64,000 bases of DNA from a virus (lineage: Duplodnaviria > Caudoviricetes). The stretch is taken from positions 9,326-73,325 of IMG/VR virus record IMGVR_UViG_645044602_000001. One strand, written 5' to 3'. Position numbers and translations under genes: made by a program. This document shows, piece after piece, positions 29,012 to 50,778 of the stretch. Position 1 is the first letter of the stretch. Each line of letters begins with the position of its first letter. The notes under the pieces were generated by a model, which ran no database searches, was not told where the DNA came from, and was given only the letters and a program-made list of their open reading frames with translations.

Positions 29012-32000
29012 TCACTGACCCCCATTCATCAGGTTGATCCACGGGTTCAACTCAGGTGCATCAAAGAGCATCTCATACCCCGTAGCATAGTCCAGATTAC
29101 CAGCAGCCATCACAGCCAAGATGTTATCACTGATTGGGCTGTTCATATCTGTCATTGCGTTCAGAGCCAGTGAACGAACCGGATTATCTCGCATCTGCTT
29201 TGCAGCAATCTTGAGAATACGGATCTTAAAGGCCATGAACCAAGTAAGACCATTCGACTCCAGACCGGAGCGAACACGACCCGGAAGCACAGAGAAGTTA
29301 ACGAACTCTTCGTTGACCATCGCTGATGCTACCTCAGCACTAAGTCCCTGAGAAATCAGGTGGTCGTAATAAATAGACTTAGCGATGAAGTCACCATACT
29401 GGGTTGCTCGATTGAGCACCTGATACAGTTTCGTAGACTTCGAAACCAACCCCACCTTAGCAATATCAGCAGCACGCTCTGGGAGCTTCTCAGACAGCTT
29501 CTCGATGTAATCACCAATACGACCTGACGAGATGTCTACATCGAGATCAGTGATACCTTCAGACAACTGCTTGAACTGACCAGCAGCAATCATCGGAGCA
29601 ATCGACATCTGTTTGTTCAGATCTTCGAGAACCTGAATACGGTCATCAATGATTTGACGCTGATTGTCATTACGAGCAATGATTCGCTTCTGTTGAAGAT
29701 CAATGATCTTGGTTCGATTGTGAATGAACTCCTCAGCTTCAGCCAGCTTTGAACGATAACCCTTCGTGATCTGTTTCAGAGGTACACCAGCATTGGCCAA
29801 CTGCATAGCGTTAGCTTGGATGTTAGCCACTGGAACTACTAGAGACCGAACCACGATGATGTCTTTGGCCGTGGATACGGTCCCTTGCAGAGCCTCTTCA
29901 CCAGCAGCAAGCATCCTCATGGCCTTACGACCCATGAAGGCTTCTGTAGCCCCTACAACGACAGCACGCATGGGCTTAGGCATACGAGACTTACCAGACC
30001 ACATATCAGTGATCGAAGGCTCACGATAACCCACAGCCAAGTTCACCATTGAACGAGGCACCATAAAGGCTCCATCGAACTTCGATTCGATATAGGACTT
30101 CGTGGACTGAGGAATCAGTTTCCATGACTCCTGATAGATCTTATCCGTAGACCGTTTCATGTCTTCAAATTCAGCATCAGACCCATTCTCACGATTCTCC
30201 CAGATCTTATGAAGCTCATCCACCAGTTGCTTGTTGTATTGATCAGCAAGGCTTTCTTCCACCTGACGACCAGCCCAAGCACCCAACATCACAGCAAGGT
30301 TCTCTTCACGACCCAAGTGAAGTTCTTGAATCTCATTCGAGATCGACCGTTCAAAACCAAGAACAGAACCATCACCAGCAAACACTGGCATCAATGCTTC
30401 CTGTTCATTTTCCAGAACAGTGTTTGGGTTCAGTTGGTCTTGAACAATACGATCTACCGAAGAGTCACCAGTAATCAGACCAGCCACAGAATTCCCTACA
30501 GTCATGCCAGTATTGGTATCCACACCCCGATAGGTCATGGCTACGTTCTGTATCACACCTTGAGAATAGGCACCCTGACGACGAACAGTCGAGACATAAT
30601 AAGACCGTGGATAGATGGAATCTGTTTCACCCTGATAAGGGATATCCAGTTTCACATAACCCATCCGTTCACGAGCATCTTTGTTGCTATCCAAGTCAAC
30701 AACGATCTGAGTATTCTTCCGACCTTCATTCGGAATGTACCCTTTGTAACCATTCAAACGAGCCTGTTCAGTGATACCCGGCTTGGCTTCTTCTGCTTCA
30801 TTCAGACTTTGAATGTATGCCACAATTGAAGTCACACCATTCGGATCAGTCTGCCACAGTTGCACAACCTCTTCACGAGTTTGAGCATCCATACGATCAA
30901 TGGCATAGACTGACACCAGACGATCAATCTTGGACACCATGTCAGGAGTACCTTCACCATCAAGATTATTGACGATGGCATAAGCATTCCGAACCAGCAA
31001 CTTACCTACAGCCTGACCATTCATGAAGTCAGCCAATTGCTTCGACTTGGCAATCACATCTGCCATTGCAGAACCAGACAGAGACTGAGCCAGATCTTGT
31101 TCAAGACGCTGGATCTCATTCCGACGAGTCGCACTTTCTTCAAGGAACTTCATGGTTTGACGCATGTTGTCCAGATCGACCAGTACTGAAAAATCAGTCT
31201 TGGCCAGAGTGTTGAACATGGCTTTCCATTGTTCTTTCGTGGGCGGGATTACAAACTCACGCTCCAGAATACCGGGAAGATCTTCACGATAAGCCTGACG
31301 CATACCAGATACAGCAGCATTTACCTTGTTCAAAAGATCCACAACCACGGAGTTCTGCTTATCCGTACCCACGATTTCTGAAACCATTTCCCGAATAGGA
31401 ACAATGGACAGAATAGGAAGACCCATGTGAGTGATCTTTTTGGCTCCTTGTGCAGTCAGATCAGTGTTCTTCTTGTCCAGCAAGTTCGTTGCCAAAGTGA
31501 CAGAAGACATCAGGAAAGGAATTACCTTTCCACGAGACTGAGCTTGAATCTCCTGATCCTTACGCAGCATCCAATCTGACGTAGACGACAGAGCACCAGA
31601 CACCATGTTGTCAGCAGCCGTAAGGGATTCCGTCACACGCTTCAGCAGACGGAACTCTTTCTCCTTGTCATGGTCAATGATGACTTGAGCGACAGCATCC
31701 AGCACTTCTTGAGGAGCGTTGTTCTCGTTCAGAGACCCCATCAGTTTCTTCATAGAGAATGAGGCAGCCCGAGTCATGAAGTCCACCAGAGAGCCTTCCA
31801 CGGCAGCCTGTGCTTCAGGTGCAGGGATCTGTTCTAGAACAGCCCGAAACTTCTTCGAAGTCTGGCTGAGAGCAAACAGAACCGCAGCAGCATCAGACGT
31901 TCCTTCGTTCTCAATTGAGCCAAAGGAATTCAGAACAGCCGAATAAGTCTGACGATCTTCAGGGTTCGAACCAAACATCTCAGGAGTCATGTTCTCAACA

Positions 32001-35000
32001 ATGTGCTGGAATACACGGGTCAGAGCAATCCGAGCCGTAGCATCCAGTTTCATGTTGGACAGCATGATACCGTAAATGGCTTTGAAGGTTGAACGATCCT
32101 TCGAATTTGCCAGCAAACCACCCTGACGAAGATCATTGATAACTTTCTCAGCATTGTAGATGTCACGGCCAGTCTTCTGTTTTGCAGAAGTATCCGTCAC
32201 AAAGCTACGCATGTAGGCTTTGAGGTTTTCAATCCAGTAATCAGAATGGTTTTCAAACGGATCAGAAGTCTCATCACCCGGTTCATCCGGAGGAGGGGTA
32301 TTCCCATTACCACCATCATCCACATTCGGTTCGTTTAGAACACGAGTGTTGAATACCACATGATCATAAAGTGAAGTTGGCATTCCACCCAGCATCCGAC
32401 GCAGCAAGGCAATAACCTTGCTTCCGAAGTCTGCAATGACAGAGACTTGCTTTGCAGTAGACCGAACACGACTGTTCGTCAGGACATAGGCCATGAATTC
32501 ATTCACAGCAGCAGCCTGATTGATCGGATCGTTACGAGCCATACGACGAGCAATAGCAGCTTGTGCTTCATTCATGGCTTTACCATCCGATTGGATGTCC
32601 ATGAATTCACCCATCAGGATCTCAAGACGAGCCACAGCATCATTCTTCACACCCTGATAGTGTTGCAAAACTGCACCATAGGTTGCAGCATGAACCATTT
32701 CATGAAGCACAGCTTCATTCGTATCAATGCTCATGAACATGACATTGTTCTTGAAGTCATAGTTCGAAGGAGCTTTCAGCACTGCACCATCATCAGGGAA
32801 GTTCTGTTGACGATATTCATTCAACTGATCCAGAGTACCGAAGATCACACGAACATCTCCCATCAAAGGCTTGAGGATTTCCACAGCCTTTTTCTGATCA
32901 GGAGTCAGGTTACGCATGTTATCCAGTAGAGCCTTTGCAATGGTAAACTCCACAGGTTTCTTCACATCCTTTGGTTTCGTGTCATTGTTGATCTCTTTCT
33001 CAATCCGATGGTTCACTTCAGAAAGAGTCCACGACTCACCATCACGAGTGAAACCAACATCTGAACCGCCCATCTGATCGACAGATACAGCCATCTGCCG
33101 GAAGACTTTCTTTCGAGCACGATTCTCTTTCAGTCGCTTGGTCATTTCAGCTTGCAAATCTTCCGGACCTTGGAAGAATTGCAAGGACTCTTTTTTGTTG
33201 TCCGTCATCAGTTCAGCCCAGACATCATTCAGGATGTCAGCTTCCAAATTGTTGGACATAAAACCTTCGAAGTTCTGTACAGCCATGCCCAGAACATCTC
33301 GATCCCAAGACTTCAATACAGCCTCATTGATCTGAGGAGCATACTGTTTGATCTTGGAAACCGGAACGTCGATACCATCGAACACCGGAAGAACATCATT
33401 CGGTGCATTATCAGCACCAAAGATGAGGTTCATCATCATGGCATCCCCAGTACCAATCACTGCAAATGGTAGAGCACGAACTCCAACGTCATCAGGACGA
33501 CGCATACGAGCAGGAGTAACCAGCTTTTCATCAAAGTTTGAAGACAGACGAAGATCAGTAAGTTTCTTATCGAAACCACCCACAGCCAAAGTCTGTTCAT
33601 CAGACACGAAGATTGCTCCCATCTGACTCAGACGGTCTTCCAATTCCTTGAAGTATTTCCGAGGAATCTCTCCTTTGTTGGGTTCACCTTTTTTGTTCCG
33701 TTTGATCACACCTTCACGAGCCAGCTTTTCAGCCAGAGCATTGATCTCACGATCAAACAGTTTCTGAAGATACTCGGACTGAATGTTTGTAGACAGAACC
33801 AGCATATCATTCAGTTGTTCAATTCGATGGCCTAGAACCTGACGAGTAGCATTCGTCAGAACCTTACCAACTGTAAACTGAATGGCTTTCCGGAATGCTT
33901 CCACTTGATCATTCGAGAACACAAAATTCTTGTCAAAGCTGTTAGGCAGCTTCAGACCAAGAGTTTCCATGTCTTTCACAACACCCGGATAGTAATAGGT
34001 ATCCCAGTCAGCATTTTCTGGTATAGTCTGGAGTTTCTCATAGAACTCCAACAGCATGTCATCAGCCACACCAATAGCCACGCCTTGAACACCAGAACCA
34101 TAGTTCACTTTGGTCATAGGATTCTTAGCAGTGTTACGGGTCATCTTGAAATCACCATTCGGCAGCATTTCAAAGTTACCAAAGGCTGAGGCCAGACGAC
34201 CAGCAGCTTTCCGTTGCTCTTGTTGCCAAGGCTTCAGGAACTTCAGATCACCAGTCATCATCTGATCACCCAATTGGGAGACCATCTCATAAAGGTCTTT
34301 TTCCTTATTCTTGAAGAACTTGTTCACGGTCATTGCCGTGGTTCCAAGGAAGTAACCCACACGTTTGAAGTTGCCCCAGTCTTCAGGAGTCATCAAACCA
34401 TGACCAAAGTTGATCATCATGTTGGCAGCACCATTGGTTAGACCATCAAGCTCAAAGCTCAGAGCAGTCTCAAAGGTTGCTTCACCATTGGCCACAGCCA
34501 GTTCAAAACCAGCAATCGCTTCAATAGCAGCCAGCACAGCAGGTTCCACCTGACCCACTTCAGTCAAGAAAGCATCTGAGTCGAACTCACCAGTGGTCAT
34601 CAGATTTTTGACCATCTGAACCGCAGGACCATACTTGTCTGCAAAGGCTTCTTGAGCAGCACGGAAATCATCTTCCCGGTCTTTCTTCTCAGCTTTGTAC
34701 ATATCAGCTTGCTGAAGAACACCAAGCCACAGAGCCTGAATATCATCAGCATCAGTCGTAGACAGCACAGACCGCTGAGGTGCCACCACATACCGCATCA
34801 GCTTGTTGTTCTGAGGGTTCGGACCTTGCATCTGATGACGACCAACTTTGGTCACACCGACAGGGAAGAAAACTTCAGAGGCTTGTTGTTCCATCATCCC
34901 ATTGATCAGATCAGTCACTTCAATCAGATCACGACGAACAGAAGCATTCTTACCCAGAACTGAACGCTTTAGCACAGGATGAGTCACAGACGCAGGATCA

Positions 35001-38000
35001 CGATATCCAAGCATCGTAGCAAGGTTATCTTCACCAATTGCTTCCAGCAGCCTTGCACGGCCCATCTGAAGACGATGAGGGATATCCTGCATACGACGAA
35101 CAGCCATACGCTCCAGAGCCGACATAATCCCTGTGCCACGTCCTTTACGGACTGACACGGTAGGGATCTTTGAACCAATGCTATAAGACTCACGAGATTC
35201 ATTGAAGATTGTTTCCCGAACAGTGTTCGAGATACCTTCACCTTTGGCTCCAGCAATACGCTTCTGATAGTCTGACATCTTTTCAGTGTTTACCAGAATG
35301 GTAGCAGCATCTTGTTGATTTGCTTCACTGGTAAGTTTCACCGTGTCGATGTCGATGATGTCCATCTCAGCAAGAACCGTCAGGATCTCTTTGGCGAAAC
35401 CATGAGTTACACCTTCCAGATCATCAACGCTTGCTTCTTCATTCTCTTTGATGTGCCACAGACGCTTCAAATCATCAGCAATTGTGTCAGATAGCTGACT
35501 TGGCGGAATACCAAACAGGATCTTGTTCATACCTTCTTCGGTCAGATCCAGTTTGTTCAGCCCCATTTTCTCCAGAGTATCATCCAGTTTCCGAGGATCA
35601 GACGCAGCAGCAGTCGAGATAAAATCCATCACTGCCAGAACCGCAAGGTTCAGCATGTCAGGATCATATTGTTCAGTTTCCGGATTCATCAAAGCACCAG
35701 CTTTGAACTTTCGAAACTCAACACGACCATCTTTAATGTGCTGTGCAATGGTCTTCGTAATCTGACCATCTTTCACACGCATTTTCAGACGAGCATTCAT
35801 CCGCTGTACAAAGTCAGGCAGAATTTCATTCATGATCGTCAGGTACTCACGGTTCATTTTGAACTCAGAACCAAACTTCTGCATGAGATCATCCAGACTG
35901 GTAATCACAGGATCACCATTTCGAGGTACAAAACTCTTGTTGAAAAGAGCCGTTACCTTCCGAGAGGATCCGGATACGGAGGCGGTGTCTGCTCCCTGAG
36001 ATCCTCCGGAGTTTCGCTCTCCGTCGGATGATTGAGTTTCTTCGCTGGATACTTCAGTGGTAGTTCCAGTTGTTTCGGTTCGGATGAGATCGCCATAAAC
36101 TTCCTCCATAAAGGCAGCAGTGTTTCCAAGATCTCCACTGAATTCTTCAGTAGAGAAAGCCATTTCCGTAGCCACTGCGAAGAGTTCAGAAGCAATCTTT
36201 TCAGGAGTGTTCCGAGTAAAAGCATACTCCAACCGATTGTTAAAGAACCCACTCATCTTACCACGCAGAGCATTCATTTCATTGTAGATTTTCCCACTTT
36301 TGTAGAACATCCGAGCAGATGAGTAGGGACGACCAACAGGATTGGCATGATTATCAACCAAATGGCCAGTCTCATGTACGAGGATAGCTTTCCCCAGAGC
36401 ATTGAGAGTCCCATCAGGATTGAACCCATCTTCTCGAATGTGAATGGTTTGGTCTGCAAAGAAAGCATGACCAAGCCCAGCAACCCGAATCGGAACAATA
36501 CGGATTTGCTTCACATACTTGTTCATCGTAGGCATCGTTGCCTTGATGAATGAACGAGCATTACCCAGACGTTCACGGACAGTTTCCCGCATACGAGCTT
36601 TTTCAGCTTCCGTCATCTGAGCAACAATATCATCCCATTTGGTTCCTGAAGGGATAGGCTCATCGGAAACTATTTCCTCATTCGTCTCGGTCTCAGAAGT
36701 CGCTTGCGCTCTTTCTTCGTCCGTTCCTCTTTCGGAATTACTTTCCTCTTCGACAGCCGTTGGAGAGGTATCTGATTTTGTATTCCTCAGAATCAAACGT
36801 CCATCGACAAGATCAAAGATGATTTCCACACCTTCGCTTTGATCAGAAGCACGAGCACCTGATTGGCGAAAACCAGCCACACCAACTGCATTTGGAAACT
36901 CTTTAAGAATTTTTCCCGCAAGAAACCTCATTTGTTTCATGCCGACATTATTTGGTCCTTTTTCAGAAGTAACAACAAAATTATCAATAAAGTTTTCATA
37001 CTCATTGTATTCGAAAGTTCCTGCAATTCTTTTCCCAGAAGCAGTTACATATCCAAATTCAAACATACCAGCATTTGGAGACACTTCCCGAACAATAAAT
37101 CCACCCTCTTTAATAGTATCAAAGATACTAAGAAACAGTCCGATACCATTCCAATAAACCATGGACTCATTTGTTTTTGTCTCATCGGTTTCTGCTGGCG
37201 CAGAAACCTCCTCGACAACCGTTGGACGAGCATCAATATTCTGGTTCACGATAGCAATCTGATCACCATTGAACACGATCACAATCGCATCTGTCCCATC
37301 AGACAGAATGATCGCATCATGATTACCAGCTTTGTAATCCATCTCCAGTTGACCACGTTTCGTCAGCCATTGGTTTTGAGGATCATCAGTCTCAACCAGC
37401 AGAGGATTGGTGGCACGAACATTCACAGACATTAGTCGTGGATTCGATTTACCAATAGCATACTCACGTCCCTGACCTTTACGAGTAGTCAGGAAGATCC
37501 CATCACGAGAATCAGCAAACTGATCAAACTCAACCCCACCAGTCCCATGATAGAAGACCATCACATTATCCTGTTCATCAGTGATGAACCCGGTATCAGT
37601 GCTGATATTCAGGTCTTCTTCTGTAGTCTGGTTCTGCTCCTCGGTTTCTGACGAAACCTCGTCGTCAGCCGTTGGGGTTTGAGTTTCTTGGTTTGTCTGT
37701 TGGTTCTGCTCGTCAGAAGTTTCTGGCGAAACTTCCTCCTCGATACCCGTTGGTTGGGTATCAGGCTTCGCCAACACAACCTTCTCCATTTTCGGGAATG
37801 AACCAAAGACTTCAGGGAATTCTTCACGCAGCGTGTTGAAAGCATCGACCACAGCATTCTGGTCTTCAGCAACCTGTTGTGCGAATGCAACACTATTGGG
37901 ATTGCTCGGTGAATACCGAACACCCTCACGACGTACACCACGAATAGGACTGTCAAAGTTCTTCAGACGACCGCCACGTTTCCCATCTGGAGATGTGTAA

Positions 38001-40369
38001 CCATCAGCAAGAGACTCATTCAGAGCCTGCACCTTGTTCACCATGTGCTGTGCAAAGTTCTGCATGTCTTTCATGACATCAGTGACAGACTGGACTCGTC
38101 CTTGTTGGTTGATGACGGTCCCTTCAGGGGACTGGATACCAGTGAAAATCTCTCGGACAAAATCGTTGATTGACCGCAGTTTCTTACCACCCTCAGATAC
38201 CATGCCATCAGCATAGATCTGACGGGAAACATCGGTGATGGTTTTCTCCTTCCCAGCCGGTCGGCCAGAAGCAGTAAGATTGACGTTTTCTGTTCGAGAA
38301 ATTTGAACCTTGGCTTCCACATTCCGGTTCACAATACGAGCCAGTTTCGAAGCAGCTTTCATCAGCTTCGTATCTTCAGGTGAAATCTGTTCACCTGATT
38401 GCTCAAGAATGAGATCAGTAGCGTCAGGATTTACAGCCGTAGGATTGACCTTCGCAACATTACGAACAGTCTGGATATCCGTAGGAGCACCTTCTTTGTT
38501 CAGATCCAGAGTTGTAGCTTTGGTCACTACATTCTGAACCATCTTCGAAGACAGCACCTTTCCAAATTCCTTTTGAGCCTCTTTAGGCAGACTTGTAATC
38601 ATACCCTGAAGTTTCTGAAACTGAGCAGCAGCATACGCAATGTCTGCATCAGTAGCTTTGAACCCTTTCGATCCCATCTTGGCAACGATACCAGTTACGT
38701 TGTCAAAGACGTTGCGTGAACCACCAGCAACATCTGCCAGACCTTCAGATGGGACTTCCACATCAGGAGTATCGAAAGCAATTTGAATGTTATCACGCAG
38801 TTGCCCTTTGGCAGCCACATCACGAAGAGATTCCGAAGCATTCACAGTGGCTTGTACAGACTCCACCACTTCCTTGTCAGTTGGACGATTTGTGTATTCC
38901 ACAATCTCTTGTCCCACTCGACCAGCAAGATTGGCAGCTTGAGTCGCACCAGCAGATACAGCAGTTGCAGCGGCTTCACGAACAGGACGAGTTACATCGG
39001 CTACAGTCTGAGCAGCACGAGAAGCCACAGAACCACCCATGATATCCTGACGCAGAGAATCGTTATAGGTTGTCTCTGAGAACAGAGCATTAGCAGCCTC
39101 AACCGCAGTCTGGGCTGAACCACGCACAGAAGCAGGAGTAGCCATCACACCAGCCACACCCATACCTGCAATGGCACCCAAAGCAGCTTCTTCGCCCACT
39201 CCTTCAAGAGCACCACGACCAATTTGAGCATACTCTTCAACCGACATATTTCGATTGATGGTTCCAGATGCACCTTGGCCAGCTTCTTCGATACCTTCAC
39301 CAGCAATCGACAGAAGACCTTTGGTCACGCCAACTCCACGGAAACTTCCGATAGGCATCGCTTCAAAGCGAGATGTGATGAAACCAAGAGCAAGAGAAGG
39401 TGCAATCTGACGAATAGCAGCAGTTTCAGCAGCCATGCCAGCAAGCTGAAGACGAGCATTCTCAGGAGTGAACCCTTCACTCAAAAGCTCATTGTAGAGG
39501 CTGGAAGTTACACCCAGACGTTCCAGAGGAATCGACATCACGTCATTGACGGTCTCAGCATAGACACCAGCAACTTCCGTAGTCGCTGCACCAGCAGAAA
39601 TACCAGCAGCCTGTGCTGCACGTTGAGCCACAGTATTACGGACCAGAGCAGTCGTAGCACCTTTGGCAATAAGACCACCTGCACCAGCCAGAGGCACTGA
39701 CAGAGCCAGATCACCAATACCTTCAGAGATGATCTGTCCAGTCACATCAGGACTGTTCCATGCTCGTTCAGCAGACTCGACAGCGTTACGTCCTTCACGA
39801 CGAAGACCAGCCATAAAAGGATCAGCACCTTCTTGAACTTCACGTTCATAGACGGCTTGATTATCCATCTTGTCCAGTTCACCTTCAATCTGGAACAGAC
39901 GAGTACGATCTTGAAGCTGAGTAGTCAGGTTGTTTTGAAGAAAACCTTCCACATTCCGATTATGCTCACTCAGGATATCAGCAGTGGCTTGCTCACGAGG
40001 AATAGCCCCATCAGTCATCCAATCGACCATGTAACCAGCACCAATACCAGCAAGGTTGCCAAAGGTACGATAAGCAGCACCAGCCGCTCCTGTAGCACTG
40101 TCAGAAATAATCTCACCAGTTGAGCGTTCACCACGATCAATACGGTCAATCCGAGCACTTCCTTCACCCATCCGCATGGCAGCACGATATGCAGGATCAC
40201 CGTACTTTGCACGGATCTCCACATCATTCATATTGGCCATATCTTGGATGAGTTCGTCACTGAAACCAGTGTTTCGAGTCCGAGCGACAGCAGCGGTATC
40301 CTGAAAGTTAGGATCACGGAGACGGGCAGCAATCATTTCAGATGCAAGGAGTTCGTCGCGTTCAGACAT
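29012..40369 (-). CDS. virion-encapsidated RNA polymerase (N4 gp50-like vRNAP), 3785 aa
   Basis: Giant ORF with no Cys found on reading; T7-like motifs ELDGLTNG, RNTAKNPMTKVNYG and LPVFDG; N4 hallmark position. Confidence 0.97.
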   Translation of the reverse strand: MSERDELLASEMIAARLRDPNFQDTAAVARTRNTGFSDELIQDMANMNDVEIRAKYGDPAYRAAMRMGEGSARIDRIDRGERSTGEIISDSATGAAGAAYRTFGNLAGIGAGYMVDWMTDGAIPREQATADILSEHNRNVEGFLQNNLTTQLQDRTRLFQIEGELDKMDNQAVYEREVQEGADPFMAGLRREGRNAVESAERAWNSPDVTGQIISEGIGDLALSVPLAGAGGLIAKGATTALVRNTVAQRAAQAAGISAGAATTEVAGVYAETVNDVMSIPLERLGVTSSLYNELLSEGFTPENARLQLAGMAAETAAIRQIAPSLALGFITSRFEAMPIGSFRGVGVTKGLLSIAGEGIEEAGQGASGTINRNMSVEEYAQIGRGALEGVGEEAALGAIAGMGVAGVMATPASVRGSAQTAVEAANALFSETTYNDSLRQDIMGGSVASRAAQTVADVTRPVREAAATAVSAGATQAANLAGRVGQEIVEYTNRPTDKEVVESVQATVNASESLRDVAAKGQLRDNIQIAFDTPDVEVPSEGLADVAGGSRNVFDNVTGIVAKMGSKGFKATDADIAYAAAQFQKLQGMITSLPKEAQKEFGKVLSSKMVQNVVTKATTLDLNKEGAPTDIQTVRNVAKVNPTAVNPDATDLILEQSGEQISPEDTKLMKAASKLARIVNRNVEAKVQISRTENVNLTASGRPAGKEKTITDVSRQIYADGMVSEGGKKLRSINDFVREIFTGIQSPEGTVINQQGRVQSVTDVMKDMQNFAQHMVNKVQALNESLADGYTSPDGKRGGRLKNFDSPIRGVRREGVRYSPSNPNSVAFAQQVAEDQNAVVDAFNTLREEFPEVFGSFPKMEKVVLAKPDTQPTGIEEEVSPETSDEQNQQTNQETQTPTADDEVSSETEEQNQTTEEDLNISTDTGFITDEQDNVMVFYHGTGGVEFDQFADSRDGIFLTTRKGQGREYAIGKSNPRLMSVNVRATNPLLVETDDPQNQWLTKRGQLEMDYKAGNHDAIILSDGTDAIVIVFNGDQIAIVNQNIDARPTVVEEVSAPAETDETKTNESMVYWNGIGLFLSIFDTIKEGGFIVREVSPNAGMFEFGYVTASGKRIAGTFEYNEYENFIDNFVVTSEKGPNNVGMKQMRFLAGKILKEFPNAVGVAGFRQSGARASDQSEGVEIIFDLVDGRLILRNTKSDTSPTAVEEESNSERGTDEERAQATSETETNEEIVSDEPIPSGTKWDDIVAQMTEAEKARMRETVRERLGNARSFIKATMPTMNKYVKQIRIVPIRVAGLGHAFFADQTIHIREDGFNPDGTLNALGKAILVHETGHLVDNHANPVGRPYSSARMFYKSGKIYNEMNALRGKMSGFFNNRLEYAFTRNTPEKIASELFAVATEMAFSTEEFSGDLGNTAAFMEEVYGDLIRTETTGTTTEVSSEETQSSDGERNSGGSQGADTASVSGSSRKVTALFNKSFVPRNGDPVITSLDDLMQKFGSEFKMNREYLTIMNEILPDFVQRMNARLKMRVKDGQITKTIAQHIKDGRVEFRKFKAGALMNPETEQYDPDMLNLAVLAVMDFISTAAASDPRKLDDTLEKMGLNKLDLTEEGMNKILFGIPPSQLSDTIADDLKRLWHIKENEEASVDDLEGVTHGFAKEILTVLAEMDIIDIDTVKLTSEANQQDAATILVNTEKMSDYQKRIAGAKGEGISNTVRETIFNESRESYSIGSKIPTVSVRKGRGTGIMSALERMAVRRMQDIPHRLQMGRARLLEAIGEDNLATMLGYRDPASVTHPVLKRSVLGKNASVRRDLIEVTDLINGMMEQQASEVFFPVGVTKVGRHQMQGPNPQNNKLMRYVVAPQRSVLSTTDADDIQALWLGVLQQADMYKAEKKDREDDFRAAQEAFADKYGPAVQMVKNLMTTGEFDSDAFLTEVGQVEPAVLAAIEAIAGFELAVANGEATFETALSFELDGLTNGAANMMINFGHGLMTPEDWGNFKRVGYFLGTTAMTVNKFFKNKEKDLYEMVSQLGDQMMTGDLKFLKPWQQEQRKAAGRLASAFGNFEMLPNGDFKMTRNTAKNPMTKVNYGSGVQGVAIGVADDMLLEFYEKLQTIPENADWDTYYYPGVVKDMETLGLKLPNSFDKNFVFSNDQVEAFRKAIQFTVGKVLTNATRQVLGHRIEQLNDMLVLSTNIQSEYLQKLFDREINALAEKLAREGVIKRNKKGEPNKGEIPRKYFKELEDRLSQMGAIFVSDEQTLAVGGFDKKLTDLRLSSNFDEKLVTPARMRRPDDVGVRALPFAVIGTGDAMMMNLIFGADNAPNDVLPVFDGIDVPVSKIKQYAPQINEAVLKSWDRDVLGMAVQNFEGFMSNNLEADILNDVWAELMTDNKKESLQFFQGPEDLQAEMTKRLKENRARKKVFRQMAVSVDQMGGSDVGFTRDGESWTLSEVNHRIEKEINNDTKPKDVKKPVEFTIAKALLDNMRNLTPDQKKAVEILKPLMGDVRVIFGTLDQLNEYRQQNFPDDGAVLKAPSNYDFKNNVMFMSIDTNEAVLHEMVHAATYGAVLQHYQGVKNDAVARLEILMGEFMDIQSDGKAMNEAQAAIARRMARNDPINQAAAVNEFMAYVLTNSRVRSTAKQVSVIADFGSKVIALLRRMLGGMPTSLYDHVVFNTRVLNEPNVDDGGNGNTPPPDEPGDETSDPFENHSDYWIENLKAYMRSFVTDTSAKQKTGRDIYNAEKVINDLRQGGLLANSKDRSTFKAIYGIMLSNMKLDATARIALTRVFQHIVENMTPEMFGSNPEDRQTYSAVLNSFGSIENEGTSDAAAVLFALSQTSKKFRAVLEQIPAPEAQAAVEGSLVDFMTRAASFSMKKLMGSLNENNAPQEVLDAVAQVIIDHDKEKEFRLLKRVTESLTAADNMVSGALSSTSDWMLRKDQEIQAQSRGKVIPFLMSSVTLATNLLDKKNTDLTAQGAKKITHMGLPILSIVPIREMVSEIVGTDKQNSVVVDLLNKVNAAVSGMRQAYREDLPGILEREFVIPPTKEQWKAMFNTLAKTDFSVLVDLDNMRQTMKFLEESATRRNEIQRLEQDLAQSLSGSAMADVIAKSKQLADFMNGQAVGKLLVRNAYAIVNNLDGEGTPDMVSKIDRLVSVYAIDRMDAQTREEVVQLWQTDPNGVTSIVAYIQSLNEAEEAKPGITEQARLNGYKGYIPNEGRKNTQIVVDLDSNKDARERMGYVKLDIPYQGETDSIYPRSYYVSTVRRQGAYSQGVIQNVAMTYRGVDTNTGMTVGNSVAGLITGDSSVDRIVQDQLNPNTVLENEQEALMPVFAGDGSVLGFERSISNEIQELHLGREENLAVMLGAWAGRQVEESLADQYNKQLVDELHKIWENRENGSDAEFEDMKRSTDKIYQESWKLIPQSTKSYIESKFDGAFMVPRSMVNLAVGYREPSITDMWSGKSRMPKPMRAVVVGATEAFMGRKAMRMLAAGEEALQGTVSTAKDIIVVRSLVVPVANIQANAMQLANAGVPLKQITKGYRSKLAEAEEFIHNRTKIIDLQQKRIIARNDNQRQIIDDRIQVLEDLNKQMSIAPMIAAGQFKQLSEGITDLDVDISSGRIGDYIEKLSEKLPERAADIAKVGLVSKSTKLYQVLNRATQYGDFIAKSIYYDHLISQGLSAEVASAMVNEEFVNFSVLPGRVRSGLESNGLTWFMAFKIRILKIAAKQMRDNPVRSLALNAMTDMNSPISDNILAVMAAGNLDYATGYEMLFDAPELNPWINLMNGGQ

Positions 40370-40436: not shown

Positions 40437-42455
40437 TTAGCGACCCTCAGTCGTACTTTGACGAGAAAGATCAGACGCAGCCTGTTCCAGTTGTTGTAGG
40501 CGAGTCAGAAGCTGTTCCCGTTGACGTTCATCATTAGGATCATTTGGATTCAGCTTATTCAGACGAGACAGGATCTGACGCTGTTGACCAGCATTCTGTT
40601 CAAGCTGTGATTCAATAATACTCAGATCCGCCTGACCACGATCAAACTCTCGACGACGTTCAGGAGTAAGTTGTTGGATGGTTTGGGCAATGATGTCCTG
40701 ATTAAAGCGATTTTCAATCGTATTTCGAGTCAAGTCAACATTCCACCACCGACCATTATCACCCGGATCTCGAATGAAGGCATCACGCATTGCCACTGCC
40801 ATCACAGCAGGTTCGACATTATACTGATCAGCCAATGTGTTGATGTAGTTTCGAAGAGTATTCGAATCATAATCACCACGACTTTCAGGATCAGTCGGAA
40901 GACCCAGATCTGTTTCCAGATTGGTAGTTGGGTCTTCAGCATACCGACCAATATCGTTCAGAGCACGATACTGATCTTGACCACGGAATTGACGATTAGC
41001 ATCAGCCACAGTATTTGCAGCAGCCGCTTCAATGGCTCCTGTAATTCCTGCATCCAATGCACCACCAGTCAGATCTGAAGTAAGACCTTCAGATTGACCA
41101 ATCATTTCAGCACCACGACGTGCAGCAGCAAGAGCTTCAGCTTGGCTGAATTCACCAGTTTCGATGAGCATTTCACGAATCAGGTTTTCAGCTTCTGCAC
41201 CACTGATTGCATCAGGTGAGTTCACAACGCTTTCAGTGATACCTGCCAGCATGTCATTCTGAAGCTGAGTACGTTCACCAGCAATGAGTTCATCACCACG
41301 AGTACCTGCATCCCGAAGAGGAGCAACTCGACCCAGAACCTCATCAGGACGGAACAGACCTGAAGCTGCCATTTGAGAAGCCCAAGCATCACCACCAAAA
41401 CCTGTTTGTGTGGTTTGGCGTGGACCACCTTGTGGTGCTTGTGCTGGACCTTGAGGTGCTGAACCAGAAGCAGCAGCAAGAATGGTATCTCGATTCACTG
41501 GAGGCATAGAACGGATTTCATCAATCATGACATCCAGTTCTGCATCAGAGACGTTCTTGAAACCTTCCCATTCAGCACGAAGACCAGCACGTTGAGCGTC
41601 CCGAGTCCGAGGACCAAGGACACGCTGTTGAGCCAGATACAGACCAAGTTGTTCCTGTACAGCCGGAGAGAATGGTACATCATCAGGAAGGCCCAGATCT
41701 TCTTGAAGACCACGAAGAGTAGAACCAACAATCTGAAACTTACCCATTGGTGTAGCAACTCGACCAATCTCAGAATTCACAGACTGACCATATTCACCAC
41801 TTGGAGAAGCAAAGCGACCAGCTTCACCAATAGTCATAGATGAGACTCGTACACCATTCTGTCGGTTACGATGACCAAAAAGAGTATCATATTGGTCAGC
41901 ACCACCACCACTTTCAGTGCGGTCAATGTGAGCAGAGAACGCAGTGCCTCCAGTAAGAGCACCTCGTTCAGCATCCAAAAATCCACCAGCATTGTTACGA
42001 AGCCAAGCATCTTGAGCTTGTCCATGACCCCATTTAGTAGCCACACGAGCTTCACCAGCATTTGCCCGAGAGTTTGCATCATTGCCCCAACCAATTGAAG
42101 CAACAGTACGATCAGCATTTGCATTGGTACTCCGAGTACCTGCACGAGTGCTGTCAAAACCAACAACATCACCCTGACGACCCATCAGGCTTTGAAGCAT
42201 GGCATCAGAAACTGGACGACCAGCAAGACCACCATTGGCAAAGTAAGCGTCGATCTCTTCCTGCGTATCCAGAGCAGCAAGTTCGTTTGCAACTTCAGCA
42301 TCAGCTTTTCGAGTTGGACCTTCAGCGTATTGGCCAAGAATACCTTGAGCCGCTTCAGCAGCATCATTGATACCGCCACGAGCTTCTGCCAGTAGACCAG
42401 ACACATTGGGAGTAGCAACTGATAGTTGCCGCCATGCAAGACGAGGATCAGCCAT
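40437..42455 (-). CDS. ejection/internal virion protein with lysozyme-like domain (N4 gp51 position)
   Basis: ESGG...YDTLFG...TPMGKFQIVGSTL...FSPAVQE motif of lambda-like muramidases; adjacent to vRNAP. Confidence 0.75.
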   Translation of the reverse strand: MADPRLAWRQLSVATPNVSGLLAEARGGINDAAEAAQGILGQYAEGPTRKADAEVANELAALDTQEEIDAYFANGGLAGRPVSDAMLQSLMGRQGDVVGFDSTRAGTRSTNANADRTVASIGWGNDANSRANAGEARVATKWGHGQAQDAWLRNNAGGFLDAERGALTGGTAFSAHIDRTESGGGADQYDTLFGHRNRQNGVRVSSMTIGEAGRFASPSGEYGQSVNSEIGRVATPMGKFQIVGSTLRGLQEDLGLPDDVPFSPAVQEQLGLYLAQQRVLGPRTRDAQRAGLRAEWEGFKNVSDAELDVMIDEIRSMPPVNRDTILAAASGSAPQGPAQAPQGGPRQTTQTGFGGDAWASQMAASGLFRPDEVLGRVAPLRDAGTRGDELIAGERTQLQNDMLAGITESVVNSPDAISGAEAENLIREMLIETGEFSQAEALAAARRGAEMIGQSEGLTSDLTGGALDAGITGAIEAAAANTVADANRQFRGQDQYRALNDIGRYAEDPTTNLETDLGLPTDPESRGDYDSNTLRNYINTLADQYNVEPAVMAVAMRDAFIRDPGDNGRWWNVDLTRNTIENRFNQDIIAQTIQQLTPERRREFDRGQADLSIIESQLEQNAGQQRQILSRLNKLNPNDPNDERQREQLLTRLQQLEQAASDLSRQSTTEGR

Positions 42456-42469
42456 ATCAGGTTACTCCC

Positions 42470-42928
42470 TCAGAGTGAGTGTTCAGAAAGGTAAGCATCA
42501 GTTTCACCTGAGCCTTTGCCTTCAGTAAAGTGACGAGATCGAATTCGATCTTCGAGAGCGGTATTGTAGGTTTGGGTTTGGTTGGCAAGGTTGGTATCCC
42601 ATTGCTCACGAGCAAAGGACATTTGTTCTTTGGCCATCTTGTGAGCTTGATAAATATACCACAGGTTTCCAAGAACCTGCACACCACCCAGAACCAAACC
42701 AGCCCCACCATCCTTTGACCAGAAGCCCGGACCACTACCCTGTTGAGCACCAACACCAGTTGTACCCGGAACAGTGGGTGATTGAACAGTGACACTTGAG
42801 ACACCAGTCCCAGTTCCACCAGTCGGAGTTCCAATCGAATAATCAAGCGCACCACTTCCCATGGCACTCATTTGAGAGCCGTTTACGGTGGCATCGCCAA
42901 GCGTATTTCCCCAAGATAGTGCTGTCAT
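42470..42928 (-). CDS. structural protein (N4 gp52-like)
   Basis: Gly-rich N-terminus and NLANQTQTYNTALEDRIRSR motif; synteny. Confidence 0.75.
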   Translation of the reverse strand: MTALSWGNTLGDATVNGSQMSAMGSGALDYSIGTPTGGTGTGVSSVTVQSPTVPGTTGVGAQQGSGPGFWSKDGGAGLVLGGVQVLGNLWYIYQAHKMAKEQMSFAREQWDTNLANQTQTYNTALEDRIRSRHFTEGKGSGETDAYLSEHSL

Positions 42929-42930
42929 GT

Positions 42931-45669
42931 TTAGTTCCTCGGCAATGTTTTGGCTACATCCACATAGTCGTATACCATTGAATGGGTCAATTCCACAATG
43001 TCACTTCCAGTCATTGTGGTCCTGCGGATGTACTCGTCAGCAGTTTCAGGCATATAGCCTCTACTGCCACCTCGTGCATTGCCTCGTCCCCATTCTGTAA
43101 GGAAAAGCGGATTGAAATTCAAATCGTTTCCGCCCAACCCATCAATAAGATCCTGAATATACTTCATACGCTCTTCGTAAGCGTTGCCGTCTTCTTCAAG
43201 ATCTCCCTTCATTTCATTGATATCGCCTTGCACCCAGCCAGCATAACCATTGGCAAGAGCATTACCCAGACCCAAAAGACCTTCAGCACTGAAGATCTTG
43301 ACCCCAGACATAGCTGCACCAAAAGCAAAACCTGCAATAGCAGCAAACAAAGCACCCCACTTTTCACCAAAGAGAGCCGTACCAACAACCTTCAGAATCT
43401 CTGAGATAATGATGGATGCGATATAGTTAGCCACCACTCCAGCAACCAAGGCAGCCGTACCTGTTAAACCTAGTGCAGCCCCTACTGCTAGGTATTGACC
43501 AAGAACACCACCACCTGCTGCAAAAGCACCGGGAAAGATAATGACTGCAATCACAATAACCAGAGTGACCAGCAGGATTTTGAAAATACCCCTTTGATAC
43601 CAACGTTGTTTGGTGACAGTGTAGCTGTTGAAAAGAATGTGAGCATTGGCTGTCGCCATCTGTGTATAATCCACGATGTTCATTTCAGACATCGTTGGGT
43701 AATGCAGAGGAATCAGAAAACCCGACTCTTCATTATCTGCCAGAGCTTCGGATGACGTGATCTTTACGGCTTTACCACCATAGATGTAATTTTTAGAAAC
43801 CAATCCCCAAACCGTTATACGACGATAGGAATTGGCTGATACCTGCCAATAGATGTACATCGACGGAATTGAGTTACTCACCATGTTGGCAAACTGTTCC
43901 CCATCATAGATGTTGAACCCTTCACGAACACTCCAAGAAAAACTTGGACCATTCGCAAGCATCACATCATCTACTTTAGGAGCCTGAGTTCCAGCAGTAT
44001 TAGGGTCAGTATCGTAAGTCCCAGCAAATTGCTCGATCTCGATATGGACCCAAGACACTCTATAATCAAAACCAAAGGTACTATCCCTCAGACGAATTGT
44101 ATTCGTAGGAGGAGGAGAAATCGTTGGTAGTTCAGGACGGGGCGGAATGGTCTGCCACGTATAGACATTCTGCTGTTCCCAATTTGTGTTCTCCCAATCT
44201 TCAAGTTTCTGAAGAGCCGCATTGTAGGCAGCCACTTCAGCTTGAAAATTGGTCATCACATTTCCAGAACCACCACTCTGAAATGGAATCATCTTCTCCA
44301 AGAAATTGAAGATATACTTCTTACAGGCATTCTCTTTCACATTGAGAGAAGCTCCAAAACATAGATAGGCATAGTCGATGTCATTAATTGAAGGATTCTC
44401 TTCAACTGAGGTAATCAGATTGTCGAAGTTCTTGCCTTGGTATGCTCGACGATATGCCTTCTTTGTAGCGTTGTACGCATCTTCATACTGTGGTTCCGTG
44501 ATCGAAACGTTGTTGATCCGGATAGGCATGAAGGGAAAAAACTCTTGGAAACCAGAAGCATCAGCTTCTGAAACCAAGGCATCAAGAACAGCATTTCCAG
44601 TCCCCACCTCATAGATGAAGATCTGTTCAGGACCATACTGCTCACCATAGAAAAGATCCTGTGTGTCGTATCGTGTCGTCCACGACGACAGGACTCTTTC
44701 TCCTGTGGTGGTTGCTGTTTCAGTTCGAATGACACCTCCACCCAGATCAGTCTGAGTCACCACGACATTCACATAGTCATTGGCAATCGTATCAGTTCCA
44801 GTCAGATTCCAAATCTGCCTTTCACCCTGAAGGGTAATTCCATTTTGTTGGACAATCACTTCACGAGACCAGACTTCTTGGGCTGTACTCAATTGCCCAG
44901 CAACATCTGCATCTACAGCATTTTCAATTGTTTGATCTGGATCACCATTGTTATAGCGCCACACCGTAGTACGAGTACGTTGCAGAGTAACTGGGGTAAA
45001 TGTCCCAGTGTTGGAATCTTGAGTGAAACTAGTGAGATCAGGAATTACCAGAACATTCGTTGTCGGAGTTCCTTCCACCACAGCAGATTCAGAATTGTCC
45101 AGATACTCAATGTATTTGGCAATGACATACCTTTTGGTAGACGAAAAAACAGGACCAAATGTCCCGTCATTGAGCCAAGAAAAGAAATCGTTATTGGGGA
45201 ATTCCACCGAGAATGTATTCGTCACAGGATCATATTCACCCAACCAGCTTTCACTATTGCGAATTGGATGGTTCATCAGAACCCATTTCTCAATCCAAGG
45301 CTGAAAGTCTCCATCAGAAATTTCTGAACTGAAGACAGTCAGATTGAGTCCAGCAGGTGCTGGAGGAACTGGAGAAGGAGGAATCTGTCCACCAACAACC
45401 AAAGCATCCAAAGAGACGTTGTTGACAATGGATGTAGTGACCATTCCCGGAATATTGTTTCGATCAGCATACCGAAAAAACTGACGTTGTTTCATCCCCG
45501 GTCCCTCAAAGAGAGACGTGCGAATATCGTCAGCTAGGCTCGGGTTATTGGAAATAACCGAACCAAACAAAGTACCTTTGATGAAGTCTGGACGATCATT
45601 TTCGTCTCCAGCCATGTTATACAATGTGCTGGAGACGTTGATGATCTTCTTAGATGAGAAGAGGCCCAT
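42931..45669 (-). CDS. structural protein (N4 gp53-like) with C-terminal hydrophobic segments
   Basis: MGLFSSKK...VSSTLYNMAGD start; WYQRGIFK followed by TM helices; synteny. Confidence 0.8.
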   Translation of the reverse strand: MGLFSSKKIINVSSTLYNMAGDENDRPDFIKGTLFGSVISNNPSLADDIRTSLFEGPGMKQRQFFRYADRNNIPGMVTTSIVNNVSLDALVVGGQIPPSPVPPAPAGLNLTVFSSEISDGDFQPWIEKWVLMNHPIRNSESWLGEYDPVTNTFSVEFPNNDFFSWLNDGTFGPVFSSTKRYVIAKYIEYLDNSESAVVEGTPTTNVLVIPDLTSFTQDSNTGTFTPVTLQRTRTTVWRYNNGDPDQTIENAVDADVAGQLSTAQEVWSREVIVQQNGITLQGERQIWNLTGTDTIANDYVNVVVTQTDLGGGVIRTETATTTGERVLSSWTTRYDTQDLFYGEQYGPEQIFIYEVGTGNAVLDALVSEADASGFQEFFPFMPIRINNVSITEPQYEDAYNATKKAYRRAYQGKNFDNLITSVEENPSINDIDYAYLCFGASLNVKENACKKYIFNFLEKMIPFQSGGSGNVMTNFQAEVAAYNAALQKLEDWENTNWEQQNVYTWQTIPPRPELPTISPPPTNTIRLRDSTFGFDYRVSWVHIEIEQFAGTYDTDPNTAGTQAPKVDDVMLANGPSFSWSVREGFNIYDGEQFANMVSNSIPSMYIYWQVSANSYRRITVWGLVSKNYIYGGKAVKITSSEALADNEESGFLIPLHYPTMSEMNIVDYTQMATANAHILFNSYTVTKQRWYQRGIFKILLVTLVIVIAVIIFPGAFAAGGGVLGQYLAVGAALGLTGTAALVAGVVANYIASIIISEILKVVGTALFGEKWGALFAAIAGFAFGAAMSGVKIFSAEGLLGLGNALANGYAGWVQGDINEMKGDLEEDGNAYEERMKYIQDLIDGLGGNDLNFNPLFLTEWGRGNARGGSRGYMPETADEYIRRTTMTGSDIVELTHSMVYDYVDVAKTLPRN

Positions 45670-45671
45670 AC

Positions 45672-47030
45672 TTAGCTTCCAAGGCTATTGTTCTGACGCA
45701 CTGCCAGAAGGACTTCGTTGATCTCATTGTTGGTGAACTGACTTGGAGCAATAAGCCCTTCATCCAGAGTTTTCTGAGTGACCCAAGCATCAGAGAACAT
45801 CTTTGCCACTTTGTGCTGTGCATCCTTGATGAAGCTGTCGATCTGCTGATCGTACAGGTCTTTCTGTTTTCCAACCGAACCTTCAACAGTCGAACCATCT
45901 GAACGAGTATCGAGAGTTTTCGACCGTTCAGCTTCTGACTGTTCAATGGTCAGAGTAATCTGTTCACCCAGCAACTGAAGCTGACGAGGCAGAGTGTTGT
46001 TGAGGTTGTAGTCTTTGATGTTGGCATCAGACGTAAGGTTACGCTTCTGAAGACCAACCACACCAGAAACTGGAGTGAGACCATCACGACGAGTATCCAG
46101 AGTGTTTGCACGCTGAGTTTCGATCTGCTCTCGAATAAGGTCAGTTTCAGCAGGTTGACGCTGGTTCAGAATGTGCTGCTGCTGTGCCAGTTCAACTGGT
46201 TGCAGCATATCACGCTTGAAATCTTCCATGTCAGCCTGAGTCGGAATAATCCGATCACGTTGCAGCTTCTGGATATCTTCTTCCAGAGGCTGAAGAACAC
46301 GGTTCTGGAACTCAGCAATAGCTGCTTGAGCAGGAAGGATACGATCCACCTGCACATTGTTCATAGCCACCGTAGACGGCATCACAGCAGTACGTTCGTA
46401 ATGCGTGATAGCCAGATCAGCAGGTTGCTGATAATTCCGCTGGAACTGCTTGATAGCGACATCAGCAGTAACTGCATCATGGTTTGCCTCTTCTGTCGCA
46501 ATTTGCATCTTTGTAAGAGCATATTGAGCAGCCGTGAGATTCAATTGGAAGTTGGCATTCGCAGCTTCAATCTTGGTTTGCTCAAGACGAATCAGAGCTT
46601 CAGTTGCCTGAATCTCAGCAATACGAGCCTGCATCTGTGCAGTGATAGCCTGCCAACGAGCTTGGTCTTTTTGAAGAGTGAAACCAACAGCTTGAGCCAT
46701 GACTTGATTGGCTACAGCAGTATAGACTTCAGCATACTGAGAACCAGTAATTCGATTCCCTTTGAATTCGCGCTCAAGGTGCTTGTCCATGGCAGTCATG
46801 AACACGTCAAATGCACCTGTACCTCCAAGGGTTTTATCCCCTAGAGTCACTTCAGCAATCGTAGCACCAATGACATTCTGATACAGAGCAGAGGTGGTAT
46901 CCGGGGTGAAGTTGTACTTCGGATCAGTAAAGTCAGGAGACGGGGGAATATTCACCCCCGTCGTAAGAGCAGTGAACAGACTGTTCGCCAATCCAGACGA
47001 ATTGTCAGAGTTTACGAATTCATTGGACAT
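45672..47030 (-). CDS. structural protein (N4 gp54-like)
   Basis: GTGAFDVFM...HLEREFKGNRITG..YA.VY and G.VGKQKDLY.QQI motifs; synteny. Confidence 0.8.
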   Translation of the reverse strand: MSNEFVNSDNSSGLANSLFTALTTGVNIPPSPDFTDPKYNFTPDTTSALYQNVIGATIAEVTLGDKTLGGTGAFDVFMTAMDKHLEREFKGNRITGSQYAEVYTAVANQVMAQAVGFTLQKDQARWQAITAQMQARIAEIQATEALIRLEQTKIEAANANFQLNLTAAQYALTKMQIATEEANHDAVTADVAIKQFQRNYQQPADLAITHYERTAVMPSTVAMNNVQVDRILPAQAAIAEFQNRVLQPLEEDIQKLQRDRIIPTQADMEDFKRDMLQPVELAQQQHILNQRQPAETDLIREQIETQRANTLDTRRDGLTPVSGVVGLQKRNLTSDANIKDYNLNNTLPRQLQLLGEQITLTIEQSEAERSKTLDTRSDGSTVEGSVGKQKDLYDQQIDSFIKDAQHKVAKMFSDAWVTQKTLDEGLIAPSQFTNNEINEVLLAVRQNNSLGS

Positions 47031-47067
47031 TGCTCTCTCCTTTTTACTTCACCCCGGTATAGACCAA

Positions 47068-47817: not shown

Positions 47818-47886
47818 TGGGTTTATCCTTTTGAGTTACCATGGTGTTGTTCGCTTAACACAGCCTAAAAACCAACACAAGAAATG

Positions 47887-47909: not shown

Positions 47910-47931
47910 CTCCTTACTTATTGTCCTGAGA

Positions 47932-50758: not shown

Positions 50759-50778
50759 TGGGCTACAGTAGATGTGGC

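Follow-up and report, generated by a model that had tools for sequence, protein, structure and literature searches.

Predicted enzyme domains and a domain of no assigned family in a variable linker slot of an N4-like roseophage virion RNA polymerase

What are three additional globular domains doing between N-terminal region and polymerase core in a phage virion RNA polymerase (vRNAP)? The question is raised by a 64,000-nucleotide stretch of a marine Caudoviricetes virus (hereafter the window; positions 9,326 to 73,325 of IMG/VR record IMGVR_UViG_645044602_000001, which has 73,325 bases and a completeness rating of 98%), in which a single open reading frame (ORF) encodes a 3785-residue vRNAP carrying a predicted ADP-ribosyltransferase (ART), a domain of no assigned family (D2), and a predicted zincin-type metallopeptidase (D3). 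By analogy with phage N4, we consider it likely that these are three globular domains inserted in the acidic tether of an injected vRNAP and delivered ready-made as enzymes. At its core this finding repeats a computational prediction already in print, with function inferred throughout: Iyer et al. 2017 (PMC5512222) described fusions of ART and metallopeptidase domains to N4-like vRNAPs and drew the comparison with T4 Alt, adding that such polymerases may also bear lysozyme, BECR-fold RNase or ART. New here are evidence that the cassette is gained, lost and reordered among near-identical phages, the D2 family, and the placement of the modules on the N4 structural model.

Four Pfam families scored above threshold in the 3785-residue protein. 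Three belong to the polymerase region, each with a cut-off of 27 bits: vRNAP_dom_2 at residues 1754-1860 (31.7 bits), N4_RNAP_helical at residues 2064-2120 (31.9 bits), and vRNAP_dom at residues 2297-2434 (158.4 bits). The fourth is ART-PolyVal at residues 931-1044. Over its length the protein is ≈90% identical in amino acid sequence to the vRNAP of DSS3phi2 (3632 residues), and the closest cultured relatives of the phage are the Ruegeria pomeroyi phages of the DSS3phi2/Aorunvirus V12 group (Schitoviridae, Rhodovirinae). With polymerase domains above threshold in a giant single ORF that lies beside ejection and virion genes, we assign ORF 29012-40369 as the N4-like vRNAP of a Schitoviridae/Rhodovirinae roseophage near DSS3phi2. 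An assembly or fusion artefact was rejected, as the ORF is unbroken and has 22 to 93 full-length homologues. The N-terminal two-fifths of the gene are organized as follows.

29012..40369, minus strand: vRNAP gene, a single ORF of 3785 residues with no cysteine, from the ORF list and translation.
37760..40369, minus strand: N-terminal domain, residues 1-870, kept across 22 vRNAPs, with hydropathy peaks.
37565..37759, minus strand: linker A, residues 871-935, 85% T/E/S/D/Q/N/P, net charge -20, starting PTGIEE.
37229-37564, minus strand: module 1, ART-PolyVal, residues 936-1047, Pfam PF18760 (Pfam match at residues 931-1044).
37163..37228, minus strand: linker B, residues 1048-1069, holding the left copy of a repeat (37207-37226) that codes for PTVVEE.
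36785-37162, minus strand: module 2, D2, residues 1070-1195, no significant Pfam or PHROG match, weakly GNAT-like predicted fold.
36647..36784, minus strand: linker C, residues 1196-1241, net charge -11, containing PTAVEE.
36080-36646, minus strand: module 3, D3, putative HExxH...E zincin, residues 1242-1430, MtfA/lethal-factor type.
35963..36079, minus strand: linker D, residues 1431-1469, leading into the polymerase region.

Across the four linkers, T/E/S/D/Q/N/P residues account for 68-85% of the sequence, and net charges range from -4 to -20. A preliminary description of this DNA had reported three compact domains with acidic Thr/Glu-rich linkers between N-terminal region and polymerase; the modules and four linkers mapped here agree with that picture, and the motifs it quoted were all located in the translation where it had placed them.

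The isolated first module matched PF18760 (HYD2-like ARTs of polyvalent proteins) with an E-value of 1.1e-11, and its 46.1 bits compare with a gathering score of 31.2; with the whole vRNAP as query the family scored 38.4 bits against the same cut-off. Since these scores exceed the gathering threshold, the match is no chance event, and the ART-PolyVal identity proposed earlier from a sequence pattern holds by Pfam's own standard. The recognizable motifs are VFYHGT at residue 938, GIFLT at 957, EYA at 969, ATNPL at 986, HDAIIL at 1017, and VIVFNGDQI at 1030. In an alignment of 11 sequences (this vRNAP and ten other ART-bearing vRNAPs, with identity down to 27%), 14 positions are invariant: Y940, H941, T943, F948, F951, F959, K964, G973, R978, N988, P989, E1009, G1015, and D1018. 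In Iyer et al. 2017 (PMC5512222), the family is marked by a His in strand 1, a Tyr in strand 2, and an Asp in strand 5, and its prototype is the vRNAP of RPP1 (Roseovarius Plymouth podovirus 1). The RPP1 ART scores 36.5 bits to PF18760, is 28% identical to module 1, and aligns with it in register at LYHGT/FYHGT, DYA/EYA, and YDGAIV/HDAIIL. This alignment leads us to predict H941, Y970, and D1018 as the catalytic triad, F959 being another conserved aromatic; the His/Tyr/Asp signature is found in module 1 by alignment, at the sequence level only, with the strand positions taken from Iyer et al. A phmmer search of PDB sequences for the ART returned nothing usable.

The third module contains ILVHETGHLVD at residue 1329 and SELFA at residue 1394. 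Among 13 vRNAPs with identity down to 30%, H1332, E1333, H1336, D1339, E1395, and E1402 are invariant, and the predicted catalytic residues of a zincin (H1332, E1333, H1336, and E1395) are all present, in keeping with the HExxH...E zincin named in the preliminary description. An AlphaFold model of D3 (pLDDT 89.0, pTM 0.86) was used for a Foldseek search, in which the eight best rows all belonged to anthrax lethal factor or to Certhrax, a toxin resembling it (probability 0.84-0.98); the lethal factor catalytic domain ranked first, with E-values of 0.026-0.084 and TM-scores of 0.35-0.42, and TM-scores in the search as a whole were 0.35-0.44. Later rows comprised minimal zincins (selecase and abylysin), Wss1, and SprT-type proteases, with E-values of 0.026-0.75 overall, and phmmer found no match for D3 among PDB sequences. 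The region of RPP1 homologous to D3 (tblastn E 8e-7) scores 26.3 bits to Peptidase_M90 against a cut-off of 26.2, and precomputed PF06167 annotations occur in 11 of 93 vRNAPs, every one of which the D3 profile also matches. D3 thus shares with MtfA (Peptidase_M90) and anthrax lethal factor the HExxH motif and a downstream Glu (in SELFA), and relatives of D3 pass the M90 threshold; it differs from MtfA in falling below detection for all Pfam peptidase models, and its resemblance to lethal factor stays at the TM-scores given above. A link between the vRNAP metallopeptidase and lethal factor was made with HHpred by Iyer et al. 2017 (PMC5512222). Taken together, these comparisons suggest a zincin of MtfA/lethal-factor type, with weak proof at the level of the fold.

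The preliminary description had proposed comparing vRNAPs to see whether this interval is a slot of variable content, and had named invariance of the three domains in all related vRNAPs as an observation that would count against the idea of carried modules. The comparison reveals a variable slot. The cassette region is matched by 22 vRNAPs, with an ART in 14, D3 in 20, and D2 in 2, and the slot measures 256-628 residues in the 21 of these vRNAPs in which both anchors could be placed. When local profiles were applied to 93 vRNAP clusters, the ART was found in 30, D2 in 6, and D3 in 43, and 33 contained none of the three. Ten arrangements occur: none (33), D3 (26), ART (14), ART-D3 (12), D3-D3 (2), D2-ART (2), and one each of ART-D2-D3 (solely this phage), D2-ART-D3, D2-D3, and D2 alone. 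One of these vRNAPs (P0104, 3617 residues) has its D2 copy at residues 2108-2212, close behind the final Pfam domain of its polymerase (1919-2064), a position corresponding to linker 2 of N4.

Differences in content appear even among close relatives. In two vRNAPs (P0008 and P0010) the ART is absent despite ≈90% backbone identity, and another (P0002, 88-90% identity) carries a different D2 allele, 29% identical, before the ART instead of after it. Module identities can also be at odds with backbone identities, a mosaic pattern seen in P0015 (N terminus 68%, ART 81%, D3 34%, downstream 60%), P0009 (54, 76, 62, and 47% for the same regions), and P0012 (67, 43, 65, and 65%). These comparisons are new evidence that cassettes are probably gained, lost, and reordered among near-identical phages through linker repeats. 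The slot holds other contents as well. A second, paralogous zincin with the motif VLHEIGH...SELFAE lies in P0011 (residues ≈1000-1200) and P0022 (residues ≈1150-1350); in P0022 it matches D3 at E 2.6e-4, and in P0023 (residues ≈800-905) it weakly matches Peptidase_M90. Two different modules of ≈75 residues, of unassigned kind, are present in P0005 (residues ≈1005-1080) and in P0018 and P0022, respectively.

The D2 module offers a view of one such event, as this phage and DSS3phi2 differ by its presence.

36745..37206, minus strand: 462-nucleotide insertion relative to DSS3phi2, comprising D2 and one linker, from blastn and junction alignment.

DSS3phi2 reads NQNIDARPTAVEEESNSER at the insertion site, with a single copy of a 20-nucleotide repeat and no D2 cassette. 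In this phage, ARPTVVEEVSAPAE stands at the left junction and KSDTSPTAVEEESNSER at the right. Comparison of the DSS3phi2 site with the two junctions shows the insert to be bracketed by two copies, differing at 2 positions, of a 20-nucleotide direct repeat (37207-37226 and 36745-36764). The base composition of D2, with a GC content of 0.378 and a third-position GC content (GC3) of 0.246 compared with 0.45-0.49 in its neighbours, suggests that the insertion is a recent arrival from a lower-GC source; the AT richness and absence of an assigned family reported for this domain earlier are borne out by this composition and by the want of a significant Pfam or PHROG match.

PT[AV]VEE is encoded within the repeat, and a related motif, PT[GAV][IV][EDS][ED], lies at the head of three of the four linkers here, at residues 873, 1049, and 1203 (37733-37750, 37207-37226, and 36745-36764). 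Among 21 vRNAPs, this regular expression, which was defined post hoc, has 31 matches inside the slots and 0 outside. It may serve as a joint for recombination, as a site of cleavage, or as both.

To place the slot in structural terms, we compared the protein with N4 gp50, which has 3500 residues and likewise no cysteine. BLASTP aligned only residues 9-409 with N4 residues 31-439. Masking of N4 gp50 found a T/E/S/K/P-rich stretch alone at ≈925-1005 between its N-terminal domain (NTD) and the polymerase. The two proteins share the plan of NTD, polymerase, and C-terminal domain (CTD), with an HExxH after the polymerase, and differ in that the N4 linker has no globular domain and N4 has no ART, D2, or second zincin. 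Since the interval in N4 is linker alone, the three modules here would sit as additional beads on linker 1, past the membrane anchor in the direction of the polymerase. According to a 2026 structural study of N4 (PMC13434306), the NTD has membrane-spanning helices at 224-278 and inserts into nanodiscs, a linker of ≈100 residues spans 907-1007, and the vRNAP takes a "beads-on-a-string" form suited to the ≈35 Å tail channel; in the model given there, refolding of the polymerase and CTD takes place in the cytoplasm, with the linker tethering them to the membrane. The flexible linkers are named 1 and 2 in PMC13492108. The slot maps to linker 1 of this structural model and once, in P0104, to linker 2, a correspondence that is new. 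In our vRNAP, hydropathy analysis shows Gly/Ala-rich hydrophobic segments, comparable to the N4 helices, in the NTD at residues 217-235 and 395-413.

If the analogy with N4 holds, the whole vRNAP would be ejected before gene expression, and the modules would reach the cytoplasm at the site of DNA entry. There, the ART would ADP-ribosylate host macromolecules, and the targets of the zincin would be either the linkers, so that modules or polymerase come off the anchor, or proteins of the host. D2 would add a further activity, most likely binding of a phosphate-bearing ligand and possibly acyl transfer. Modules would be gained, lost, and moved by recombination in the repetitive linker-coding DNA. 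A precedent for the ART step is T4 Alt, an ADP-ribosyltransferase that is packed in the phage head, enters the cell together with the DNA, and works ahead of phage gene expression. Alt differs in being a separate protein, unfused to a polymerase, and in belonging to the R-S-E clade of ARTs, as compared with the H-Y-[EDQ] clade here. ARTs are the commonest modifying enzymes of such head-packaged proteins in a 2022 survey by the authors of the 2017 article (PMC9503650). With ART, D2, zincin, polymerase, and a second HExxH motif in one ORF, the protein has the makeup of a polyvalent protein as defined by Iyer et al. 2017 (PMC5512222), where one virion-delivered chain joins several effector-type domains of different origin, as a rule including a zincin metallopeptidase, its delivery being inferred from N4.

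Several observations weigh against delivery of these modules as ready-made enzymes. Tyr970 of the predicted triad is replaced by Phe in some relatives, for example P0007 and P0012. D3 itself matched no Pfam peptidase model at E<=10, and its best fold match reached just E 0.026, with no rows at E<=0.001. The three profiles were built from close relatives, and divergent modules may hide among the vRNAPs scored as having none, making that count an upper bound. No experimental paper on a vRNAP ART was found in a full-text search of a limited literature collection, which for ARTs in N4-like vRNAPs retrieved Iyer et al. 2017 alone. N4 vRNAP is packaged unprocessed according to Iyer et al. 2017 (PMC5512222), so release of the modules by cleavage is conjecture, and 26 of the 93 vRNAPs have a zincin with neither ART nor D2, so release of those modules cannot be the sole purpose of the zincin.

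The last two points bear equally on the idea that the slot zincin acts on the phage's own protein only, severing the linkers once inside so that ART, D2, or polymerase come away from the membrane anchor, and having no host target. Autoprocessing was proposed for polyvalent-protein metallopeptidases by Iyer et al. 2017 (PMC5512222), and the slot-restricted PT[GAV][IV][EDS][ED] motif at linker starts could be the cleavage site. But this motif lies within the 20-nucleotide repeat flanking D2 and can equally be explained as a recombination joint; moreover, the 14 vRNAPs that have only an ART lack a zincin to release it, and the zincin-only vRNAPs and the unprocessed state reported for N4 fit such a role poorly. 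We regard purely self-directed cleavage as possible but doubtful.

The remaining module, D2, proved to have few detectable relatives. It had no Pfam match at E<=10, only a chance-level match to PHROGs (E 0.21), no tblastn match in 50,697 phage records, and no relative in a single-protein scan of IMG/VR; a D2 profile gave chance-level rows against PDB sequences (E 0.03 or worse), and a protein atlas returned one unnamed viral cluster at 0.84, under the useful level. A HMMER search of 1.84 billion representatives yielded 16 matches at E<=0.001, of which 14 were kept. The other two (P0024 and P0028) were rejected as spurious, being Cys-rich and matched in many short stretches, with domain E-values of 0.006 and 7e-5.

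All 14 homologues are embedded in proteins of 1024-3892 residues, and none stands alone. One (P0023) is a 1024-residue fragment with the same ART-D2-zincin order as here and 60% identity in D2. Three lie in proteins of 3500-3900 residues (P0025, P0026, and P0030), among which P0025 is a full vRNAP by Pfam. In P0026 (3892 residues), residues 610-1284 hold D2 followed by a superfamily 1 (SF1) helicase (AAA_30 and UvrD_C_2), upstream of a polymerase-like region whose match to N4_RNAP_helical is weak, at 18.6 bits with the cut-off at 27. The available part of Iyer et al. 2017 (PMC5512222) contains no mention that we met of a helicase as a cargo type. The remaining ten homologues are proteins of 1048-1581 residues. 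PHROG "internal virion protein" matches were obtained for two of the five scanned (P0027, P0029, and P0031-P0033), and by Pfam P0027 also contains an M15 peptidase domain and P0031 one of type M23. Eight of the ten share backbone similarity that extends past D2; likeness to the N-terminal domain of the vRNAP was seen in none. D2 is accordingly a domain family that, as judged by sequence homology, is found only within large proteins, namely vRNAPs and relatives of internal virion proteins, and it is new. Our full-text search, in a limited collection without supplements, found no description of D2; other vRNAP-associated domains, D2 possibly among them, may be tabulated in the supplements of Iyer et al. 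2017.

This distribution returns us to the nature of the slot, as it would also suit modules that are mainly structural, beads through which the tether acquires its length, charge, or order of folding during ejection, with the enzyme motifs as relics. N4 functions with a bare linker at this position, 33 of the 93 vRNAPs lack all three modules, D2 has no obvious catalytic residues, and its presence both in relatives of internal virion proteins and in linker 2 of P0104 accords with a role in ejection. But the His and Asp of the ART and the HExxH and Glu of the zincin remain invariant down to 27-30% identity, unlike relics, and gain and loss among phages ≈90% identical suit accessory functions better than a mechanical need. 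We therefore think a chiefly structural role very unlikely, and continue to favour delivery of preformed enzymes.

For D2 itself, the structural evidence is divided. The predicted model has a pLDDT of 87.8, and the best Foldseek rows were the GNAT enzymes SpeG and GCN5 (E 0.04-0.2). In a second structure search, about 30 of 50 rows belong by their titles to the acyl-CoA N-acyltransferase superfamily (GNAT, Fem, AHL synthase, and HAT), with scores in the tool's "common arrangement" range, where antizyme and bunyavirus cap-binding domains score equally. The order of secondary structure elements resembles the GNAT core. The loop S-E-K-G-P-N-N-V-G of D2 misfits Q/R-x-x-G-x-G/A, the CoA-binding motif of GNAT enzymes. 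With the loop off the motif and no Pfam match, the sequence hallmarks of GNAT are missing, and we do not assign D2 to that family; its predicted fold is weakly GNAT-like at best.

The invariant residues in a 16-sequence alignment of D2 are G1089, G1117, P1159, R1168, G1171, and R1173. That they are limited to Gly, Pro, and two Arg suggests a different role, in which D2 is a non-catalytic binder of nucleic acid, nucleotides, lipid head groups, or partner proteins, acting through its invariant R-x-[ST]-G-x-R loop, and not a GNAT acyltransferase. A low-confidence loop (model residues 104-115) replaces the helix that follows strand 5 in GNAT enzymes, and the fold scores are of a level that non-enzymatic folds also reach. 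Pulling the other way are the predominance of acyl-CoA N-acyltransferases in the structure rows, with SpeG and GCN5 at the head of the Foldseek search, and a Gly-rich loop (S1135 and G1138) between a strand and the long helix, the position at which pyrophosphate is bound in GNAT enzymes. We see the arguments for a binder as evenly balanced. Unlikely, in our judgement, is a more sweeping proposal that D2 represents a new family of injectable effectors, with cassettes spread across Schitoviridae vRNAPs (in either linker) and internal virion proteins of other phages, the Thr/Glu-rich linkers and their PT[AG][IV][ED]E joints acting as a dedicated scaffold for recombination and cleavage by which marine N4-like phages could rearrange their earliest weapons within a population, and D2 itself being a GNAT-derived enzyme that defeats a host defence ahead of phage gene expression.

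Among known vRNAPs, that of RPP1 (CBX87992.1/YP_009874054.1) has the same backbone and slot, with an ART followed by an M90-type zincin, PTGIEE and PTAVEE linkers, and no cysteine; it differs in lacking D2, in a helical stretch before the ART, and in a polymerase core that is 52% identical. The vRNAP of DSS3phi2/Aorunvirus V12 (YP_002899070.1) has the same ART and D3 within its ≈90% full-length identity and differs by the missing 462-nucleotide D2 cassette, with a length of 3632 residues. The words "ADP-ribosyl", "fused", and "peptidase" do not occur in the roseophage paper PMC10654107.

The vRNAP contains another HExxH motif outside the slot.

32690..32704, minus strand: second HExxH, HEMVH at residues 2556-2560, downstream of the polymerase, from a motif scan.

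It is followed by NEFMAY and is the counterpart of HELVH at residue 2228 in CTD-C1 of N4. An HExxH in N4 CTD-C1 is described in PMC13434306, and Iyer et al. 2017 (PMC5512222) placed a metallopeptidase at N4 residues 2130-2448. Together with D3, this gives the vRNAP two zincin-like domains.

Upstream of the vRNAP gene, ORFs of 672, 152, and 912 residues match DSS3phi2 gp61, gp62, and gp63 in order and size, a correspondence of synteny and size; gp62 and gp63 of DSS3phi2 are annotated as N4 gp52-like and gp53-like. A 190-residue ORF with a TTG start (36863..37435, plus strand) runs antisense to the sequence that encodes ART and D2. It overlaps the conserved vRNAP frame and is probably spurious.

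The lack of cysteine in the vRNAP and its three domains, which had been pointed out before, is confirmed by counting: the other ORFs of the window contain 143 Cys in 16084 residues (0.889%), from which 33.7 would be expected in the vRNAP, and 0 are seen. Cysteine is likewise absent from 91 of 93 vRNAPs and from 13 of 14 D2-bearing proteins. We also observed that the adjoining virion-protein ORFs (window positions 40437-53639) are Cys-poor, with 0-2 each, and that the mean for early and replication ORFs lies well over 1%. With the neighbouring virion ORFs also poor in cysteine, its lack is a trait of virion and ejection proteins as a class and not of the cassette, and may be connected with unfolded passage through the periplasm.

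That enzymes might be loaded on an injected polymerase to act before transcription was predicted from sequence in 2017. The phages compared here add near-isogenic natural variants, in which backbones ≈90% identical carry a zincin, an ART and a zincin, or an ART, D2, and a zincin; DSS3phi2, with ART and zincin, has been cultured on Ruegeria pomeroyi DSS-3, and the other variants are metagenome-derived sequences only. D2 adds a previously undescribed domain family within vRNAPs and relatives of internal virion proteins. With the place of the tether defined by the 2026 structures of N4, whether such cargo enters the cytoplasm, and whether it is cleaved, become questions that can be asked.

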